Positions 9,129 to 57,629 of a DNA stretch of 64,000 nucleotides are shown piece after piece. The number at the start of each line of letters is the position of its first letter. Position 1 is the first letter of the stretch. A program made the position numbers and the translations under genes. Origin of the DNA: an uncultured Bacilli bacterium (GTDB taxonomy: Bacteria; Bacillota_I; Bacilli_A; RF39; UBA660); assembly GCA_934130105.1 (NCBI GenBank), contig CAKOXL010000001.1:3431-67430 (forward strand). Reading direction: 5' to 3'. The notes under the pieces were generated by a model. The model did no database searches, had not been told where the DNA came from, and worked only from the letters and a program-made list of their open reading frames with translations.

Positions 9129-9869
9129 ATGATACCATTTGTTATTACTTTTCTAGCTGGTTGTAGTACTTTAATAGGTTATTTATTTGTTTATTTTAAA
9201 GGTAATCATAAAAATATATTAGTATCATCTCTTTCATTTGCTAGTGGTGTTATGGTTATGATATCAATATCTGATTTATTGCCGTCATCTTTTTCATGTA
9301 TTAATACTACTTATTATGTAGTTCCAACCTTCTTAATATGTAGTATATTTACAACAGTTGGTGTTTTAATATCTATGATGATTGATAAATATTTACCAGA
9401 TAATTCATATCAAGATGGTAAATTATTTCGGGTTGGAATGATTTCTATGATAGCAATTATTCTTCATAACATACCAGAAGGAATTGCTACTTTTCTAACA
9501 TCTAACCATAATTTAAAACTAGGTATTACTTTAGCAATAGCTCTAGCTTTACATAATATACCAGAAGGTATTAGTGTTAGTGTTCCCATTTATTATAGTA
9601 CTGGTAGCAAAAAAAAGGCCTTTTTTTATACGTTAGTATCTGGTATGAGTGAATTTTTAGGTGCTATCTTTGCCTTTTTATTTTTATCAAAATTTAATAG
9701 TGAAATATTTATGGGATGTTTATATGCTATAATTGCTGGTATAATGATGCATATTTCTGTTTATGAATTATTACCAACAAGTCTTAGATATAAAGAAAAT
9801 AGTAAAACCATTATTTTTTTCCTAGTAGGTGTATTATTTATGTATATTAGTAGCCTATTATTGCATTAA
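9129..9869 (+). CDS. zupT: ZIP-family zinc transporter
   Basis: 8-TM ORF with two HNIPEGI(A/S) ZIP signature motifs. Confidence 0.7.
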   Translation: MIPFVITFLAGCSTLIGYLFVYFKGNHKNILVSSLSFASGVMVMISISDLLPSSFSCINTTYYVVPTFLICSIFTTVGVLISMMIDKYLPDNSYQDGKLFRVGMISMIAIILHNIPEGIATFLTSNHNLKLGITLAIALALHNIPEGISVSVPIYYSTGSKKKAFFYTLVSGMSEFLGAIFAFLFLSKFNSEIFMGCLYAIIAGIMMHISVYELLPTSLRYKENSKTIIFFLVGVLFMYISSLLLH

Positions 9870-9963: not shown

Positions 9964-12588
9964 TTATTCTTCTTCTTGATCAGGATTAGCAGTAGGAGTA
10001 GGTGATGGTGTAGGAGTCGGTGTTGGTACTATAATATCACTTGGATCTTTATATACAAATTCATATACAGCAGGATCACTCATATTTTCACTATAATTTT
10101 TAAATGTTGTAACAACTTTGTAAGTACCTGAAATATTAGAATTTGCTTCAATTGTATACGAATTATTAGTAGTAAAGTCTAATAATACATCACCATAATA
10201 TACATTATATCCAAATTCTCCAAAACTTTCATTACCAGTAGGAGTATTTAATTTAGACCAACTGATAGTTATTTTTTTAGTATTTTCATCGTAAGAAACT
10301 TTAAGATTGCTAACTGTTTGAAGTTTATCATATTTTGTAGATATTTCAGTAGGTTCATTACCTGTTTTAAAATATTCACAAGTAATTTGATCTTCTGGTG
10401 TACTAGCACTAGGTAAAGCAGGAGGCCAACTACCTTTTTCTACACACTTTTGAGTTACTGTAGTAGGTTGTTCAAATGTCTTTCCAGAATTTTTATTAAA
10501 GACAACATTTCCTATTGCTCTATATAATTTACCTCTTTCAACACCAGCTGTATTTACACGTAAATGATTAGTACTACTTACATTTTGGTATCCAAGCCAC
10601 ATTGAAACAGCATATTCAGGATCATATCCTACTATCCAAGCATCATTAATAGCATCACTTGATAAATTAAGTTTTTGTTTATCTTCGCTAGTAAAGTTAG
10701 TAGTACCAGTTTTAGCAGCTAATGTTACACCATTAATTTTAGCACCACTACTTAGACCACTTTCAACTGCCGTTACTAACATATCACTAATCATGAAGGC
10801 TGTTGCTTCACTCATTACTTTAGTTTCTTTTGGTTTAATTGTCTTTATATCATTATTTTCTCTATATATTATTTTATTAACAGTTAAAGGTTCAATATAA
10901 GTACCACCATTGGCAAATGCGGCATAAGCTGCAGCCATTTGAAGTACTGTAACACCATCTATCGCACCTATTGAACTTGATTCGTATAACTGTCCATTAA
11001 CAGTTTCAGGTGTTAAACCTAGGTTGGTAACAAATTCATATATTTTTTTATTTCCTACTTGTTCCTGAACTTTTTGAAATGCCTTTAAAGCAGGAATATT
11101 TCTAGATAGTGAAAGAGCTGATCTAATACTTATTTGTCCTAGATACTTACTATCTGAGTTAGTAATTGCTTGACCTGTTGAATATTTCCAAGGTTCATCA
11201 ACGATTTGTTCATAAGTTGACCAGTTTAAATATTCAATTGCGGGTGCATAATCAAATATTGGTTTAGCAGTAGATCCTATTTGATTTGTCTCTTGTGTTA
11301 CAAAATTCCAATCACCAGCACTTCTATTATGTCCAGCTCCAACAGCTACTAGTTTTCCAGTTGAAACTTCAATAACAGCTGCACCACTTTGGATAGTATC
11401 ATTAATCCATTTATATTTATTATTACTATTATATACTTCATCAATTCCAGCTTGTCTTGTACGATCCATGTTAGTATATACTAAAACTGAAGTGTAATAT
11501 GGGTTAATACCATGTTTAGTTTTTAATTCTTCAACAACAGTATCAATATAACTTTGATATGCTGATGTTTTCTTTTTTCCAGAAAGAAGTGATGTAATAG
11601 GGATACTATTAGCCATTTCAGCTTCTTCTGCGGTTATATAAGAATGTCTAACCATTAAATTTAATACAGTACTTCTTCTTTCATAAGCCTTAGCTGGATA
11701 TTTATATGGATTATAAACAGTAGGGTTATTAAATATTCCAACAAGAAGTGCAGCTTCTGATAAGTTTAAGTCCTTAACACTTTTTCCAAAATAAGTTTGT
11801 GAAGCTTGTTCAACACCCCAAGCATTATTACCAAGATCATAATTATTTACATAATATTCAATAATTTCCTCTTTGGTAAAATTTTTCTCTAGTTTAAATA
11901 CAGCTAAATATATATCAGTAAATTTACGTATTATTCCGTCAATTCCTTCACTTTCATTACCAGTATAAGTATTTTTAATTAATTGCATTGATAAAGTAGA
12001 AGCACCACCAGCATCTTTATTTCCTAAAATCTGTCCTATACTTGCCTTAATAAAACGAGGTGCATCAAGACCATTATGTTGAAAGAATCTAGAATCTTCA
12101 GTTGCGATTAACGCATCAATAAATACTTCAGGTAAATCATCATAAGTTATATTTTCTCTTAATTGTGAACCAATTCTAGTAATTTCTTCTCCATCTTTAT
12201 CATATAAAATACTTGCTTCTGATTTATTAAGTTTGCTAACATCAAATTCAGGAGCATTAGTAACTATATATCCAATAAAAACTGAAATACCGATGCAAAC
12301 TAATATAGCTATCGTAAAAAAGAATATTAATATAAAGTTAATTACTCTTCTTCTTTTCGGCTTCGATTTAGTTTTATCAAGGATTCTAGCTATAAGTAAT
12401 ATAAGGATAATACCAATAGCTATTATAATAGTTAATAGCATTCCAAACTTAAGGTAGCTAATTAAAAGAAGTGCTAATAAGATAATACCAATTATAATAA
12501 CTGGTTTTTCTATTTTAGTATTTTTTCTACTATTTTTAGGTTTATTATTTTCTTTCACATTTGTTTTTTTGACTGTTTTTGCCATCAT
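9964..12588 (-). CDS. ponA: penicillin-binding protein 1A (bifunctional glycosyltransferase/transpeptidase)
   Basis: 874 aa; N-terminal TM, GT51 motifs (EDSRFFQH, GASTLSMQ), transpeptidase SxxK (STAKP), and a C-terminal PT-rich linker. Overlaps the recU stop. Confidence 0.88.
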   Translation of the reverse strand: MMAKTVKKTNVKENNKPKNSRKNTKIEKPVIIIGIILLALLLISYLKFGMLLTIIIAIGIILILLIARILDKTKSKPKRRRVINFILIFFFTIAILVCIGISVFIGYIVTNAPEFDVSKLNKSEASILYDKDGEEITRIGSQLRENITYDDLPEVFIDALIATEDSRFFQHNGLDAPRFIKASIGQILGNKDAGGASTLSMQLIKNTYTGNESEGIDGIIRKFTDIYLAVFKLEKNFTKEEIIEYYVNNYDLGNNAWGVEQASQTYFGKSVKDLNLSEAALLVGIFNNPTVYNPYKYPAKAYERRSTVLNLMVRHSYITAEEAEMANSIPITSLLSGKKKTSAYQSYIDTVVEELKTKHGINPYYTSVLVYTNMDRTRQAGIDEVYNSNNKYKWINDTIQSGAAVIEVSTGKLVAVGAGHNRSAGDWNFVTQETNQIGSTAKPIFDYAPAIEYLNWSTYEQIVDEPWKYSTGQAITNSDSKYLGQISIRSALSLSRNIPALKAFQKVQEQVGNKKIYEFVTNLGLTPETVNGQLYESSSIGAIDGVTVLQMAAAYAAFANGGTYIEPLTVNKIIYRENNDIKTIKPKETKVMSEATAFMISDMLVTAVESGLSSGAKINGVTLAAKTGTTNFTSEDKQKLNLSSDAINDAWIVGYDPEYAVSMWLGYQNVSSTNHLRVNTAGVERGKLYRAIGNVVFNKNSGKTFEQPTTVTQKCVEKGSWPPALPSASTPEDQITCEYFKTGNEPTEISTKYDKLQTVSNLKVSYDENTKKITISWSKLNTPTGNESFGEFGYNVYYGDVLLDFTTNNSYTIEANSNISGTYKVVTTFKNYSENMSDPAVYEFVYKDPSDIIVPTPTPTPSPTPTANPDQEEE

Positions 12589-51555: not shown

Positions 51556-51599
51556 GCGCTAGTACAGGTCTATTTAGTAGGCAGTACTACGCTTTTTTT
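51556..51599 (+). promoter_or_regulatory. intrinsic-terminator-like hairpin plus U7 in the cas9 5' UTR, immediately abutting the cas9 RBS
   Basis: gcg(c)tagtac / gtactacgc 9-bp stem with an 18-nt loop, then TTTTTTT (51593-51599); the GGAGG RBS is at 51600-51604. Confidence 0.45.
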
Positions 51600-51609
51600 G
51601 GAGGTAAAA

Positions 51610-54600
51610 GTGAATAAAGATTATATTATCGGACTTGATTTAGGAATTAATAATGTTGGGTGGTCTATTATTGATAATAGTACTAAAAAGATTGAAAAAT
51701 GTGGAGTAAGATTATTCCCAGCAAGTAATGATGCTAGTGAAAGAAGAAGTATTCGAAATGGAAGAAGAAGATTAAAAAGAAAAGATAATCGCATTCAAGA
51801 TGTTTTAAAATTATTTCAAAAGATTCATTTTCCTAATAGCCAAACAATTGATACTAAATTAATAGAAAAAAGATATTTAGGAATTCATGAAAAAATAGAA
51901 AAACAAGATATTGTTAATATTTTATGTTATTTAGTTAGTCACCGTGGTTACATTCCATTTAACGATGAAGAGGTTAACTTCGTTTCTTTAGACGGAAAAT
52001 TACCATGTGAATATTATTATGATTTATACCAAAAAACTGGAAAATATAGGGCTTTAAATTGTACGGTAAAAAATAAAGATTTAGAAAAAGAAATTGAAAC
52101 TTTATTAGAAAAACAGAGTATATATTATCCAGAGTTAAAAGATATTCATAAAGAAATATTAATAATTTTTAATAGAAAAAGAAAGTTTTGGGAAGGACCA
52201 GGTTCAATACAACAATTAACTCCATACGGAAGATTTCAAACATCAGAGCAAGTAGAAGAATATTTACACAATAAGGAAAAAAATCCTAACTATGAGAAGT
52301 ACTTATTTGAAGATTTGATTGGAAAATGTAAGATAGCTATTTTAGAAAAATGTGCACCTAAAGCTAATTTTTATGCTGAACAATTTGATCTCTTAAACGA
52401 TTTTATTAATGTGTCTATTTCAAAACCTGAAAAATTAATTTCTCAAGATAGTGTTTACTTAGATATAGATACTAAAAAATATAAATTTACTCAAGATAGT
52501 TTGAATATGATTTTTGAATATTGTATTTCCAATTCAAAAGTAGTTGTAAAGAATATGTTAAAGAAGTTGTTTGGCCTTAATATAGAAGATATTGATAATT
52601 ACCGTGTAAATAAAAAAGGTGAACCAGAATTTTCTACTATGAAATCTTATCGTATTATTTTAAAAACATTAGAAGATAATAATCTTGGAACAGAATGGCT
52701 AGAAAACATAGAGGAATATAATAGAATTATTTATTATTTAACAGTAGCACCAGGTATTGTAGAAATTACTAAAATGATCGATTTTGATGATAAAATTGAG
52801 TACTGTTTTTCTGAACAAGAAAAAGAATGTTTAAAACAAATCCATGATAAACTAAGTAAAGACGGAATTCTTAACTATCATTCTCTATCAGAGAAAGCTT
52901 TAAAAAGAGCTATTCATGATATGCTAAGTTATCAAATGAATTTTATGCAAGTTCGTAAAAAATTTGATTACGACAAAGAAGCTAGAGAATATTTTTCTAA
53001 AAACTATTCAGATAGTCGTGAAGGTATGCCTCATATAAATAGTAAATTTGTTGAGGAATTAATTGCTTCTCCTCAAGTGAAAAAGACATTAAGACAAGCA
53101 ATTAAAGTTATTAATGCTATTATTGATGAAAAAAAAGAATTACCGAAAGTAATAGTAATAGAATCTACAAAAGAAATGAATGGTAAAGAGAAAAAAGCTG
53201 AATTAAATCGTATGCAACAAAAGCAAGAGAAATTACGAACAGAAGCTAAACAAGAAATCAGTTATTTATATGGTGATGAAAATGTAACTGAAGTAAATAT
53301 CGAAAAAGTTATGCTATTTCATGAAATTAATGGACAATGTCCATACTGTAATCACCCAATTCAATTAGATGATGTTATGAATAATCGTATAGAAATTGAA
53401 CATATTTTACCTAGAAGTAAAAGCTTTGATAATTCTTACAATAATAAAACTTTAGCTTGTTCTAATTGTAATAAGGAAAAAAATAATAGAACACCATATC
53501 AGTATTTAATGCCATTAGGTAATTATGACTCTTATAAAAAAAGAATTCAATCTTTACAAAAAATTTCAGATTTTAAAAGGGAAAACTTTTTATTTGAAGG
53601 AGATATTGATAAATATAAAACTAGATTTTTTAATCGTAATTTAAGAGATACAGCTTATGCTACTAGTGCCTTAGTAGAACAAATTCAACTATTTAATAAC
53701 TATTTGAAACTAAATTATAATAATACACAAGTATTAACATTATCAACTCCAGGCCAATTAACCAGTAATATAAGAAAGCAACAAAATCTAGAAAAAGATA
53801 GAGATGACGGTAAATATCATCATGCAGTAGATGCTAGTATCATTGCTCTTATTGCAACTACACAATTAGGAAAAATATTAATTGATTCTCAGAATAATCC
53901 TAAATTTTGGAAACTTTATAAAAATGTTTTTTCTGGTATTGAAAATTATCTTTATCATTTTAATTTAGCTAATTATAAGGAACAACTAAAAGAAATTGAT
54001 AGTGATGAAAAAATAAAAATATCTTCTCAGATTCAAAAAAATCCTCAAAAGAAATTAGCAAATGCGAATATCTACAAAGTATTTAAGAAAGAAGATAAAT
54101 ATTATCGTATTGACCAAATTGATAATATTTATAAAGCTGACTTTTCTAGAAACGATACTATAAAACAATTTGATAAGTTATTTGATGAAAATGATTCTAA
54201 TATAACATTATTATGTCAAGATAATGACATTGATTTATTCAACTATTTAAAAGAAATTTACCAAACTAGAATAGCCAAAGAAAATCCTTTTGTTTCATAC
54301 TGTAGAGAATACCATAACTTAGATTCTGATAAAGACTTTGATTATTTAAAACATGGTATTCATGTACCAAGTAAGAAAGGTAACAGTCCAGTAATAGTAA
54401 AACTTCGTTATTATACTGCTATCACAACACCATACTTAATTCAAAAAGAGAATATTAATAAAAAAGAAAGTACACTACTAGCATATGATTCTTTAGCCCA
54501 ATATTGTACTCAAGTATTTATGGATTTAGAGAAAAATAAGTTTGTTTTTTTACCTATTTTTTGTATATCTGTTGATTTAAAAAGTGGTAAATTAAAAGAA

Positions 54601-54888
54601 AATGACTCTTTTTATAAAACATTATATGAAAAGTATATTCAAAATAAAAAAGTTAAGTATGTGGCAAGTTTATATAATGGTAATTATTTAGAAATTGAAA
54701 AGAAAAATGGTACTATTGTGAAAGGAGAATATCAAGGATTTCATAAAACAAATAATAAAATAGTTTTAAAAAATGATGTCTATTTTACTACTAATGATTT
54801 ATCTCTTTCTATTTTTGATATTGATGTACTAGGAAATAAGAAAAAAAGATTGACTTTTAGTGTTAAGGATTGTATATTAAAGAAGTAG
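51610..54888 (+). CDS. cas9: type II-A CRISPR-associated endonuclease Cas9 (compact, ~1093 aa from GTG)
   Basis: RuvC-I IGLDLGINNVGWSI, RuvC-II VIVIESTKE, RuvC-III YHHAVDASII, HNH IEIEHILPRSKSFDNSYNNKTLACSNCNKEKNNRTPYQYL (SaCas9-like). The GTG at 51610 is taken as the start instead of the ORF-track TTG at 51598, which lies inside the U-run. No internal stops. Confidence 0.95.
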   Translation: MNKDYIIGLDLGINNVGWSIIDNSTKKIEKCGVRLFPASNDASERRSIRNGRRRLKRKDNRIQDVLKLFQKIHFPNSQTIDTKLIEKRYLGIHEKIEKQDIVNILCYLVSHRGYIPFNDEEVNFVSLDGKLPCEYYYDLYQKTGKYRALNCTVKNKDLEKEIETLLEKQSIYYPELKDIHKEILIIFNRKRKFWEGPGSIQQLTPYGRFQTSEQVEEYLHNKEKNPNYEKYLFEDLIGKCKIAILEKCAPKANFYAEQFDLLNDFINVSISKPEKLISQDSVYLDIDTKKYKFTQDSLNMIFEYCISNSKVVVKNMLKKLFGLNIEDIDNYRVNKKGEPEFSTMKSYRIILKTLEDNNLGTEWLENIEEYNRIIYYLTVAPGIVEITKMIDFDDKIEYCFSEQEKECLKQIHDKLSKDGILNYHSLSEKALKRAIHDMLSYQMNFMQVRKKFDYDKEAREYFSKNYSDSREGMPHINSKFVEELIASPQVKKTLRQAIKVINAIIDEKKELPKVIVIESTKEMNGKEKKAELNRMQQKQEKLRTEAKQEISYLYGDENVTEVNIEKVMLFHEINGQCPYCNHPIQLDDVMNNRIEIEHILPRSKSFDNSYNNKTLACSNCNKEKNNRTPYQYLMPLGNYDSYKKRIQSLQKISDFKRENFLFEGDIDKYKTRFFNRNLRDTAYATSALVEQIQLFNNYLKLNYNNTQVLTLSTPGQLTSNIRKQQNLEKDRDDGKYHHAVDASIIALIATTQLGKILIDSQNNPKFWKLYKNVFSGIENYLYHFNLANYKEQLKEIDSDEKIKISSQIQKNPQKKLANANIYKVFKKEDKYYRIDQIDNIYKADFSRNDTIKQFDKLFDENDSNITLLCQDNDIDLFNYLKEIYQTRIAKENPFVSYCREYHNLDSDKDFDYLKHGIHVPSKKGNSPVIVKLRYYTAITTPYLIQKENINKKESTLLAYDSLAQYCTQVFMDLEKNKFVFLPIFCISVDLKSGKLKENDSFYKTLYEKYIQNKKVKYVASLYNGNYLEIEKKNGTIVKGEYQGFHKTNNKIVLKNDVYFTTNDLSLSIFDIDVLGNKKKRLTFSVKDCILKK
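54850..54878 (+). promoter_or_regulatory. putative tracrRNA promoter embedded in the cas9 3' end (TTGACT-17-TATATT)
   Basis: Canonical hexamers with 17-bp spacing; predicted TSS ~54885-54890, at the anti-repeat start. Confidence 0.4.
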
Positions 54889-54889
54889 T

Positions 54890-54978
54890 GTTTTACACTA
54901 CTCAAATTATACAGGGTTTCCTATTATAACTCTTTAATGAGGAACCCATGGAGAAGCTTAACCGGCTTCTCTTTTTTT
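54890..54978 (+). ncRNA. tracrRNA: tracrRNA (anti-repeat plus two hairpins and an intrinsic terminator)
   Basis: 54890-54915 GTTTTACACTACTCAAATTATACAGG is the reverse complement of repeat positions 11-36 with one mismatch. The following GTTTCCTATTATAAC continues imperfect complementarity (UCCUA pairs with UAGGA) with a bulge. Then come the hairpins GGTTTCCT...AGGAACCC and GAGAAGC-TTAACC-GGCTTCTC plus T7 (54972-54978). Confidence 0.75.
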
Positions 54979-54988
54979 ATTATAATTT

Positions 54989-55886
54989 ATGGCTTTTAGA
55001 AATATTTTAATAGAAAAAGCAGTAAAAGTTAGTTTAGATTTAAATAATATTGTTGTTCGTTTTGAAGAAGAGGATTATTGGATTTCATTAGATGAAATTA
55101 GTACCTTGATTATTGATGATCCAAGATGTAATGTTTCGCTTCGATTATTAATGGAATTATGTAAAAAGGGTATTAGTGTAATTTTTACTGATGAGTCACA
55201 TATGCCAGTTGGTACTTTAACTACTTTATATAATCATAGTAGAGCAGTGAAAAAGATAGAAAAACAAATCACTTGGAGTAAAGAAGAAAAAGAATTCCTA
55301 TGGACAAAGATAGTAGAAAAAAAGATTAATTCTCAAATAGATACTTTAAAATTATTGAATAAAATGGATAAAGTAGAAGTATTAGAAAATTTATTATCAA
55401 CAATGTCAAGTGGTGATTCTACTAATCGAGAAGGTATTGCTAGTAGAACATATTTTAAAGCTTTATTTGGTAGTCAATTCAAAAGATTTAATGAAGATAT
55501 TATTAACTTTTCATTAAATTATACTTATCAACTAATTCGCTCTAAATTAAGTCAAGAGATTGTAGTTAGTGGTTATCTTCCATCACTAGGAATTTGTCAT
55601 AAAAGTGAATATAACTTTTTTAAACTTAGCTGATGATTTTATTGAACCTTTTAGGCCTATAGTAGATTATTTTGTGTATGATATTTTACTAAAATCAGAA
55701 AGTGATTATTTAACGCCAAACATTAAAAGACAATTAGTAAACATTTTAAATCAAAAGATTGTGTATGAAAATTATGAATATAAAATTCATATCGTAATTC
55801 AATTTTATGTGCAAAATTTATTAAATTTCTTAGAAACTGGTGATATACAAAAAATAAAATTTCCGTCATTAATATGGATTATATAA
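54989..55886 (+). pseudogene. cas1: cas1 with a +1 frameshift in a T6 homopolymer (55616-55621)
   Basis: ORF 54989..55633 (214 aa) and ORF 55605..55886 (93 aa) are the N- and C-terminal parts of one Cas1. Deleting one T restores ...HKSEYNFLNLADDFIEPFRPIVD... (~298 aa). Confidence 0.85.
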
Positions 55887-56224
55887 ATTATTATAAACAA
55901 ATGCGAATAATTCTAATTTATGATTTACCAGTAGTCCAAGAAGAAGATAGAAAAATATATTTGAGATTTCATAAAAGTTTAATAACTTTCGGCTTTTATA
56001 TGCTTCAATTTTCTGTATATACTAAAGTAATTCAAAATGATTCATCATTTAAACAGTTAGCTAATAAATTAAATAGAATAATTCCTAACAAATGAAATGT
56101 TATACTTTTAAAAGTTACAGAGAAACAATATCAAGATATGATTTATTTAACAGGGGAAAAGAATAAATTTGATATGTTAGTAGGTGGAAAAGAATTGGTA
56201 GTATTTGGTGAAATTGATGATTAA
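55874..56224 (+). pseudogene. cas2: cas2 with an in-frame TGA at codon 74 (56093-56095)
   Basis: MDYINYYKQMRIILIYDLPVV...NRIIPNK*NVILLKVTEKQYQDMIYLTGEKNKFDMLVGGKELVVFGEIDD; the segment after the stop continues in the same frame and matches the conserved Cas2 C-terminal region. Confidence 0.85.
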
Positions 56225-57107
56225 GTTAAAAATAAGAAATGAATATGATGAATTATTTTTAAGAATTAGAAAAGATAACCATATATTAGTAGAAAATGAA
56301 TTAGGGTATAGAAATTTATACTTAAAATTTTACCAATTGATAAAAGAAAAATAAGATAATTTAATCGGATTTTTAGATGATAAATTAATCACGGGTAAGG
56401 ATTTTATTTTAATAGACTTAATGGATTTAGAAGAGTTATTAGTTATGACACAATACAAAAAAGGAAGCTTATTATTTGATTATGTTAACAGAAAATTATT
56501 AGAAAAAGTAGTAGAAATTGATAATGATTTTTATAATAAAGTATCTATTTTAGTGGAAGATGTTTTTGATAGTTTAGGTGTTAGTTATCAATTAGAAGAT
56601 AATAATCTCAAATTAATTCAATCTTTGTTACAAGTTTATATAGATTTTAAGGATATTACTTCACTTTTACAAATTATAAATAAATTGTTATTAAAAGTAT
56701 TAAGTAGTAGTGACAATAGTAAAAAGTATATTATTTTTTATAATTCTGGCATATTAAATATCGATTTTTCTAACTATGAATGCTGTTATAGTTTTGATGT
56801 TAATAAAAATTTAAATATATCTAAGTATAATTTATTGTCTACTAATTGGGTGTTGGAGTTCTATTTAGATGTTGTACAACAGCAGGTTAAGTTATTATGG
56901 CCTATACACTATACAAGTGAAATAATATATTTTTATTTAGCAAGATATTTTAAGTACTATCTTGGATTTGAAAAACTGGAATTAACTGAGCAAAATGAAA
57001 TTATTATGGCAAGTATTATTAAAAAATTATTTGGTTTTAATCAAATGGTTATTTATGATTTTTCTTTAATTGAACATAACATTAAATCTTTTCTAACTGA
57101 TTTATAA
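56217..57107 (+). pseudogene. csn2: csn2 with an in-frame TAA at codon 46 (56352-56354); intact ORF portion is 56421..57107
   Basis: An ATG at 56217 overlaps the cas2 stop (gATGAtTAA, classic coupling) and the frame is open to 56351 (MIKLKIRNEYDELFLRIRKDNHILVENELGYRNLYLKFYQLIKEK). After the TAA the same frame continues (DNLIGFLDDKLITGKDFILIDLMDLEELLVM...) into the 228-aa ORF ending at 57107. Confidence 0.65.
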
Positions 57108-57114
57108 TTAGTTA

Positions 57115-57123
57115 TGATATAAT
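57115..57123 (+). promoter_or_regulatory. extended -10 element (TGATATAAT) of the CRISPR array
   Basis: Lies 9 bp upstream of repeat 1. A second TATAAT at 57103-57108 overlaps the csn2 stop codon. Confidence 0.35.
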
Positions 57124-57131
57124 ATCTATAG

Positions 57132-57629
57132 GTTTTAGGATCCTGTATAATTTGAGTAATGTAAAACCTTATTTATTTTTTGTAAAAACGAAATTAAGTT
57201 TTAGGATCCTGTATAATTTGAGTAATGTAAAACAAAAATAAGTGATTTTCCAATAGGTGCTAAGTTTTAGGATCCTGTATAATTTGAGTAATGTAAAACT
57301 GTTTCAGTTGTATCGTAATATGTTACTTCGTTTTAGGATCCTGTATAATTTGAGTAATGTAAAACGCTTACCTTTTCATATTAGTATGAAATACTGTTTT
57401 AGGATCCTGTATAATTTGAGTAATGTAAAACATGATTTGTTGCCTATGGCGATAACATACGGTTTTAGGATCTTGTATAATTTGAGTAATGTAAAACGGA
57501 AGAAAATATATTAAAAGAAGTATTGAAGTTTTAGGATCCTGTATAATTTGAGTAATGTAAAACTGATTTTATTGAAGATTGAAACTAAGACAGGTTTTAG
57601 GATCCTGTATAATTTGAGTAATGTAAAAC
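57132..57629 (+). CRISPR. CRISPR array: 8 x 36-bp repeats (GTTTTAGGATCCTGTATAATTTGAGTAATGTAAAAC), 7 x 30-bp spacers
   Basis: Repeats at 57132, 57198, 57264, 57330, 57396, 57462, 57528 and 57594 with a strict 66-bp period. Repeat 6 carries a single C>T change (GGATCT). Spacers are unique. Confidence 0.97.

Follow-up and report, generated by a model that had tools for sequence, protein, structure and literature searches.

A candidate trans-activating CRISPR RNA between cas9 and cas1 in a type II-A locus of uncultured gut Bacilli

In type II clustered regularly interspaced short palindromic repeat (CRISPR) systems the space between cas9 and cas1 is one of four typical positions of the trans-activating CRISPR RNA (tracrRNA) and is used in three II-A subclusters (Chylinski et al. 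2013, PMC3737331); the tracrRNA of Streptococcus thermophilus CRISPR1 is also located there (Wei et al. 2015, PMC4335292). Nexus stems of three base pairs (bp) have likewise been described (bioRxiv 10.1101/2020.09.02.279885), and the tracr-L form has a 5′ extension that folds back onto the anti-repeat (bioRxiv 10.1101/2020.05.21.102756; summarized in 10.1101/2023.03.03.530964). Here we describe a locus in a 64-kb stretch of DNA (64,000 nucleotides [nt], G+C content 26%; hereafter the window) from an uncultured Bacilli bacterium. The locus, of CRISPR-Cas type II-A, lies on the + strand in the order cas9, tracrRNA, cas1, cas2, a fourth gene and the array, with a 100-nt gap between cas9 and cas1. 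We conclude, with a probability of about 88%, that 54885-54978 (+ strand) encodes the tracrRNA of this system and that it serves a compact Cas9 resembling those of Staphylococcus aureus (SaCas9) and S. thermophilus CRISPR1 (St1Cas9). A preliminary description of the window had called the placement St1Cas9-like, and its position in the cas9-cas1 interval, with RNA, cas genes and array all on one strand, does match both published accounts. The arrangement is therefore already known, having been published for the three II-A subclusters and S. thermophilus CRISPR1, and it is the members that are new.

The proposed pairing between the RNA and the CRISPR repeat involves the following features.

57132-57629, + strand: CRISPR array of eight 36-nt repeats (GTTTTAGGATCCTGTATAATTTGAGTAATGTAAAAC) and seven 30-nt spacers, the pairing partner of the tracrRNA
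54885-54978, + strand: predicted primary tracrRNA of ~94 nt, bounded by the putative promoter and terminator and ending in a T-run
54890-54916, + strand: anti-repeat, upper stem, pairing with repeat positions 36-11; G54916 can form a wobble pair with U10
54917-54918, + strand: UU bulge separating the upper and lower stems in the co-fold; GUU/UUU is kept here in all loci
54919-54927, + strand: lower stem, with UCCUA facing repeat positions 9-5, UU opposite U4 and U3, and AU facing U2 and G1

When up to three mismatches to repeat positions 11-36 were allowed, a search of the window returned the eight array copies and a single site on the opposite strand, 54890-54915, which matches at 25 of 26 bases (chance expectation 0.00). 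With the whole repeat as a blastn-short query against the 64-kb window this site scored E = 8.8e-8, and all other repeat-like matches outside the array were 11 nt or shorter with E ≥ 0.32. The preliminary description had placed an anti-repeat with one mismatch exactly here, two bases past the cas9 stop codon (TAG, 54886-54888), with a bulged continuation toward the 5′ part of the repeat, and all of this holds. The co-fold with the repeat (-54.1 kcal/mol) has a layout resembling the guide RNAs of SaCas9 and of Streptococcus pyogenes Cas9 (SpCas9): tracrRNA nucleotides 1-27 pair with repeat positions 36-10, UCCUA at 54919-54923 pairs as listed, and A54926 and U54927 pair with U2 and G1; beyond these the co-fold shows AA, the 3-bp stem-loop at 54930-54941 and the terminator. 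The single mismatch in the upper stem is an A.C between repeat position 28 and C54898 of the tracrRNA.

Support from other genomes comes through Cas9, to which the following gene corresponds.

51598-54888, + strand: cas9, a 1096-amino-acid (aa) open reading frame (ORF) from a TTG codon, matching the Cas9 model TIGR01865 at E = 6e-142

Since homologues measure about 1092 aa, translation of cas9 probably begins a few codons downstream of this TTG. The closest solved structures are of the SaCas9 type (E = 9e-67; 5AXW, 5.6e-66) and St1Cas9 (E = 8e-58), and the protein belongs to the compact SaCas9/St1Cas9-like branch. An alignment of Cas9 homologues led to 38 loci in one-genome-per-species contigs, with Cas9 proteins 37-89% identical, nearly all from gut metagenome-assembled genomes labelled Bacilli, Tenericutes or Acholeplasmataceae, and the clade is made up of unnamed metagenomic proteins. 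Every locus that reaches beyond cas9, ~30 of these type II-A relatives, has the tracrRNA element in its cas9-cas1 gap, and the core of the element, UCCUAUUAUAAC, is almost invariant. The array is included in 22 loci, and in each of these 22 the anti-repeat fits the repeat of its own locus. In a full-text literature search neither the conserved core nor the repeat sequence was found in any paper.

We joined each repeat to its own anti-repeat for 20 distinct loci and counted the intermolecular pairs. Paired cells amounted to 95.1%, compared with 79.8% in shuffles and 38-46% when the partners were slid by one to three columns; compensatory changes occurred in 22 of 34 pairs, and none of 500 shuffles reached the observed value on any of five measures. 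In the upper stem 94.8% of cells are paired and 19 of its 26 pairs have compensatory changes. The lower stem of 5 bp pairs in every one of the 20 rows. It comes in five versions (UAGGA/UCCUA, UAAGA/UCUUA, UAAAG/CUUUA, UAGAG/CUCUA and UAAGG/CCUUA) and adjoins a UUAU that is invariant across loci. These five versions, all predicted to pair, are the strongest evidence for the proposed pairing with the repeat, the bulged continuation included. An alternative register in which repeat G1-U3 would pair with AAC at 54928-54930 showed no compensatory changes, was broken in 4 of 20 rows and clashed with the nexus described below; the co-fold register (G1.U54927 and U2:A54926) is preferred.

Two loci, L031 and L032, have a second, nearly full-length anti-repeat that lacks the bulge, lying between the cas9 stop codon and the canonical tracrRNA (~9225-9260 in each). 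It is apparently within the same transcript, and could be a duplicated anti-repeat or an evolutionary intermediate.

Downstream of the anti-repeat and an AA linker (54928-54929) are two further elements.

54930-54941, + strand: nexus-like stem-loop CUC-UUUAAU-GAG, from covariation and RNAalifold
54950-54978, + strand: putative Rho-independent terminator, a 9-bp hairpin (54950-54972) followed by U7 (54972-54978)

Both co-vary in an alignment of 24 distinct 3′ tails. The nexus has 95.5% of cells paired and compensatory changes in two of three pairs, with versions CUC/GAG, CUU/AAG, CUA/UAG, CGA/UCG and CAC/GUG; the terminator has compensatory changes in all seven aligned pairs. RNAalifold, run de novo on the tails, predicts exactly these two helices. 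One locus (L017) carries an additional hairpin within the nexus loop, as expected of a stem with a free loop. Terminator-like sites are scarce in the surrounding 7 kb (two, with 0.8 expected).

The preliminary description had proposed two hairpins followed by a T7 terminator. The terminator is where it was placed, with its stem at 54950-54972, and it is conserved. Both hairpins do appear in the single-sequence fold: the free 94-nt RNA (54885-54978) folds at -32.1 kcal/mol (z = -6.5) into a 5′ hairpin (GUAGUGU/ACACUAC), a hairpin 1 (GGGUUUC...GGAACCC) and the terminator. However, hairpin 1 (GGTTTCCT...AGGAACCC) has no covariation support. As a conserved handle its two registers are 81% paired, a level reached by 66 and 80 of 500 shuffles; one pair only shows any compensatory change, 11 and 10 of the 24 sequences are unpaired at two of its pairs, and RNAalifold does not predict it. 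Its 5′ arm (54914-54920) is also the stretch that pairs in the duplex with repeat positions 12-8; hairpin 1 and the bulged continuation are therefore mutually exclusive in the state bound to CRISPR RNA (crRNA). It (GGTTTCC/GGAACCC) dissolves in the duplex and competes with the lower stem and the nexus, and may form in the free RNA of this genome. As judged by covariation, the conserved 3′ tail has two elements, the 3-bp nexus and one terminator hairpin.

The segment past the nexus, 54939-54947 (GAGGAACCC), resembles repeat positions 6-13 (AGGAUCCU); in L033-L038, which are distant loci, the corresponding stretch (AGAG..CUGUA) is likewise similar to the repeat of the locus itself. The tail looks like a self-mimic of the repeat, with no covariation signal.

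At its other end the RNA appears to start from a promoter lying in the 3′ end of cas9.

54850-54855, + strand: putative -35 box TTGACT, in the cas9 codons for the conserved C-terminal Arg-Leu-Thr
54873-54878, + strand: putative -10 box TATATT, 8 nt upstream of the cas9 stop codon
54885-54901, + strand: predicted 5′-terminal hairpin GUAGUGU-UUU-ACACUAC, from the fold and co-fold; the stop codon of cas9 falls within its 5′ arm, and the first 12 nt of the anti-repeat make up the 3′ arm

This promoter, TTGACT-17-TATATT, was also noted in the preliminary description. The match in the window is by itself at chance level, and support for it comes from the conservation of both hexamers and their spacing in other loci: nearly all have TTGAC[AT], 17-18 nt and TAnnnT, ending 40-55 nt upstream of the core. 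In 16 loci the -35 box is the Leu-Thr codon pair of a conserved Cas9 C-terminal motif, K-K-R-L-T, and the Leu codon is always TTG, even though TTG accounts for just 1-31% of the Leu codons across these genes (6% in the window). Four more distant loci have the -35 motif in another frame (cTTGAC, Leu-Asp), and in L037 it lies past the stop codon; the -10 box precedes the stop codon in the window and in the related locus L007, and the homologous TATATT falls just after the stop in L001. As the motif is kept across frames and stop positions, it is the DNA motif, and not the protein, that is fixed relative to the RNA.

In 22 of 23 loci the -10 box is followed, after 5-7 nt, by a 5′ hairpin equivalent to that of the window, with z between -2 and -5. 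Its sequence differs between loci, which indicates that the leader follows the anti-repeat; the leader of the window is GUAGUG and includes the cas9 stop codon, and in Acholeplasmataceae-like loci the hairpin is placed just upstream of the anti-repeat. The start of transcription, put near 54887 in the preliminary description, is likely to be slightly upstream at 54884-54886, which fits the foot of the conserved hairpin.

Because cas9 has no terminator of its own, with none between its stop codon (ending at 54888) and the anti-repeat (from 54890), cas9 transcripts must include the tracrRNA as well, at their 3′ end. The tracrRNA might then have no promoter, being just the 3′ untranslated region of cas9 mRNA and freed when RNase III cuts the duplex with the crRNA precursor (pre-crRNA); promoter-like hexamers are at chance frequency in this region, and the mature 5′ end would be set by RNase III in either case. 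We regard this as distinctly unlikely, since it does not explain why the distance between promoter hexamers and RNA is constant in nearly all loci, be the hexamers read as Leu-Thr, read in another frame as Leu-Asp or placed past the cas9 stop, why a rare Leu codon is always used, or why the hairpin starts so regularly past the -10 box, as expected for a defined 5′ end. A dedicated promoter remains our reading.

Hairpins at the 5′ end stabilize RNA against 5′-end-dependent decay in Firmicutes, and by analogy the hairpin most likely protects the 5′ end of the free RNA. It could also be part of a switch in which the free tracrRNA masks itself, timing or limiting the loading of crRNA rather than acting only as a 5′ stabilizer. 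The leader mimics the 3′ end of the repeat and covers the distal anti-repeat in those 22 of 23 loci, and in many loci, including that of the window, the 3′ segment AGGAACCC (like repeat positions 6-13) can cover the proximal anti-repeat. If so, just ~12 nt would be left open as a toehold and the RNA would be a regulatory switch; we think this rather doubtful.

Transcription of the array appears to run in the direction of the cas genes.

57115-57131, + strand: probable array promoter and leader end, with an extended -10 element TGATATAAT (57115-57123) followed by CTATAG, which abuts repeat 1

The extended -10 element and CTATAG are conserved before repeat 1 in ~17 related loci, and this conservation, together with the co-orientation of the cas genes, argues that pre-crRNA is made from the + strand. 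The segment is probably the array promoter and, in addition, the leader-anchoring sequence used in spacer integration. Array orientation also bears on whether the functional RNA might come from the - strand instead, as CCTGTATAATTTGAGTAGTGTAAAAC, ending at a weak terminator-like site on that strand (54903-54883) and pairing with a - strand array transcript. This we find scarcely credible and have rejected. The anti-repeat would then be at the 3′ end of the RNA with no nexus or handle after it; the supposed terminator is the other strand of the conserved 5′ hairpin; and the conserved promoter, nexus, strong terminator and array -10 element are all on the + strand.

Two spacers match phage contigs. 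Spacer 5 (57432-57461) matches four IMG/VR contigs at 30/30 or 29/30 positions, with the 3′ flank GTATGTCT; spacer 4 (57366-57395) matches 13 IMG/VR contigs at 26/30, with the mismatches confined to the first five bases and the 3′ flank GACAGTTA, or GACAGTTT in some contigs. The matching viral contigs (L039-L055) are mostly from sample 3300045988. The shared G-T at flank positions 5-6 hints at a protospacer-adjacent motif (PAM), although with n = 2, and two protospacers cannot define a PAM. Spacers 1, 2, 6 and 7 gave no exact viral match, and a 20-nt match to spacer 3, which could not be extended, was treated as chance.

Taken together, these features suggest a pathway on the pattern of other type II systems. 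A sigma-70-type promoter, with its -35 box in the last cas9 codons and its -10 box shortly before the stop, would direct transcription from ~54885 to the hairpin-U7 terminator. The 5′ part of this RNA would pair with every repeat of a pre-crRNA made from the same strand, starting at the leader promoter (57115-57123), to form a duplex with a 26-27-bp upper stem, the UU bulge and a lower stem facing nine repeat bases (1-9). Such a long duplex would be a substrate for RNase III, which reportedly processes the tracrRNA:pre-crRNA duplex in type II systems (Deltcheva 2011; Jinek 2012). Cas9 would hold a handle that runs from the lower stem and the invariant UUAU, through the AA linker and the 3-bp nexus (CUC/GAG), to the terminator hairpin. 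In the unpaired RNA the short leader and the distal anti-repeat probably form the predicted 5′-terminal hairpin.

The assignment as a tracrRNA draws on several findings that agree. The anti-repeat is complementary to the repeat of the same locus and lies outside the array; the element is within the cas9 locus, on the strand that is antiparallel-complementary to pre-crRNA given the predicted array direction; a 3′ handle follows, with nexus and terminator both co-varying across the 24 tails; and anti-repeat and repeat have co-evolved across related loci. The conserved array promoter on this strand, the spacer matches to phage contigs and the purifying selection on cas9 also count in its favor. 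Other observations weigh against it. The promoter match in the window is no better than chance (59 sites in 7 kb of AT-rich sequence, compared with 54.6 in shuffles). Repeats and anti-repeats share common descent, so part of the co-variation could stem from gene conversion and not from selection for pairing. The window has no Rfam match at the gathering score, and within 54700-55100 the Rfam tracrRNA family (presumably RF02348) gave none at E ≤ 10, with matches at chance level only. That family covers Streptococcus-type tracrRNAs, and the failure to match it consequently places the RNA outside that sequence family and not outside the functional class. Lesions in cas1, cas2 and the fourth gene may also mean that the locus is starting to decay.

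54989-55886, + strand: cas1, in two frames
55874-56224, + strand: cas2, with one lesion
56205-57107, + strand: fourth ORF, in the position of csn2, with one lesion (counterpart in L007 at 10607-11509)

The window and L007 are 88% identical in nucleotide sequence, with one indel. Relative to L007, a +1 frameshift interrupts cas1 within a T-run at 55622, GGA has become TGA in cas2 (56093-56095), and codon 50 of the fourth gene is an in-frame stop, with the ORF restarting at 56421. An alternative code (TGA = Trp) does not account for the split cas1, since the break is a shift of frame and TGA serves as the stop codon of related cas9 genes. These lesions, and an array of 8 repeats compared with at least 19 in L007, raise the question of whether the element is a functionless relic, either an orphan inverted copy of the repeat or a tracrRNA left behind in a locus that has already died in this genome. 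We consider a relic very unlikely. The ratio of nonsynonymous to synonymous substitution rates (dN/dS) of all four genes is 0.09-0.17, the three damaged ones included, which argues that the lesions are either recent or assembly errors; cas9 is intact and under purifying selection (dN/dS = 0.11 in comparison with L007), and the tracrRNA keeps every conserved feature. Interference needs only cas9, the tracrRNA and the array, all of which are intact, and is independent of cas1, cas2 and csn2. A functional tracrRNA thus remains the preferred interpretation.

The cas1 ATG (54989) lies 10 nt past the T-run of the tracrRNA terminator and has no Shine-Dalgarno sequence; in Acholeplasmataceae-like loci there is a GGAGG at the equivalent place before cas1. 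Given this position and the missing Shine-Dalgarno sequence, cas1, cas2 and the fourth gene must rely on read-through of the terminator or on an unrecognized start. The 300-aa product of the fourth gene, which is intact in L007, had no match in NCBIfam, Pfam, PADLOC or the PDB sequences, and matched no Csn2 profile. It may be an undescribed Csn2 variant, like those noted in Staphylococcus and Mycoplasma loci by Chylinski et al. (2013).

What results is a guide-RNA scaffold for an uncharacterized clade of compact Cas9 proteins (~1090 aa) from uncultured gut Bacilli and Tenericutes, in which the register of the duplex, the bulge, the invariant UUAU, a nexus of 3 bp and the one terminator hairpin are all defined. 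The observed co-variation is, in our judgment, strong enough for the design of a single-guide RNA (sgRNA) without RNA sequencing, and the scaffold suggests the layout N20-22-GUUUUAGGAUCCUGUAUAAU-GAAA-AUUAUACAGGGUUUCCUAUUAUAACUCUUUAAUGAGGAACCCAUGGAGAAGCUUAACCGGCUUCUCUUUUUUU. The preliminary description had gone further in saying that the locus gives everything needed to design an sgRNA; this was overstated, as the PAM side has two protospacer hints only. The scaffold should be useful to those testing these enzymes as small genome editors. It leaves the understanding of type II systems unchanged, with small additions to tracrRNA biology in the promoter within the coding end of cas9 and the conserved 5′ hairpin.

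Among known systems, tracr-L offers a parallel to the 5′ hairpin. The tracr-L extension mimics the 5′ part of the repeat and carries an 11-nt guide, whereas the leader here is 5-16 nt long and pairs with the distal end of the anti-repeat; it is too short, at the wrong end and without room for a guide, and so could not make a natural single guide of that kind. The SpCas9 tracrRNA shares the succession of anti-repeat, nexus and terminator, and there too repeat G1 wobbles with U, followed by AA and the nexus, but it is encoded upstream of cas9 on the opposite strand. S. thermophilus CRISPR1 is similar in having a compact, related Cas9 (~1100 aa, E = 8e-58) in a type II-A locus whose fourth gene and array follow downstream, also on that strand. 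In contrast, there is no detectable sequence similarity between the two RNAs, the lower stem here is broken by the invariant UUAU opposite U3/U4, and the fourth gene, unlike the long Csn2b of CRISPR1, fits no Csn2 profile. The St1 tracrRNA has a GGC/GCC nexus in place of CUC/GAG and more than the single 3′ hairpin found here. The SaCas9 guide (PDB 5AXW/5CZZ) belongs to the closest solved Cas9 proteins, and its repeat, like that of the window, begins GUUUUAG. This clade differs from it in the U.U mismatches of the lower stem and in the single terminator hairpin. The lower stem of the Sa guide is fully paired, its nexus is GGC-AAAAU-GCC, and it ends in two 3′ stem-loops. In general plan it agrees with the RNA here: about nine positions make up the lower stem, which a bulge or internal loop separates from the upper stem, and an AA linker leads to a 3-bp nexus.

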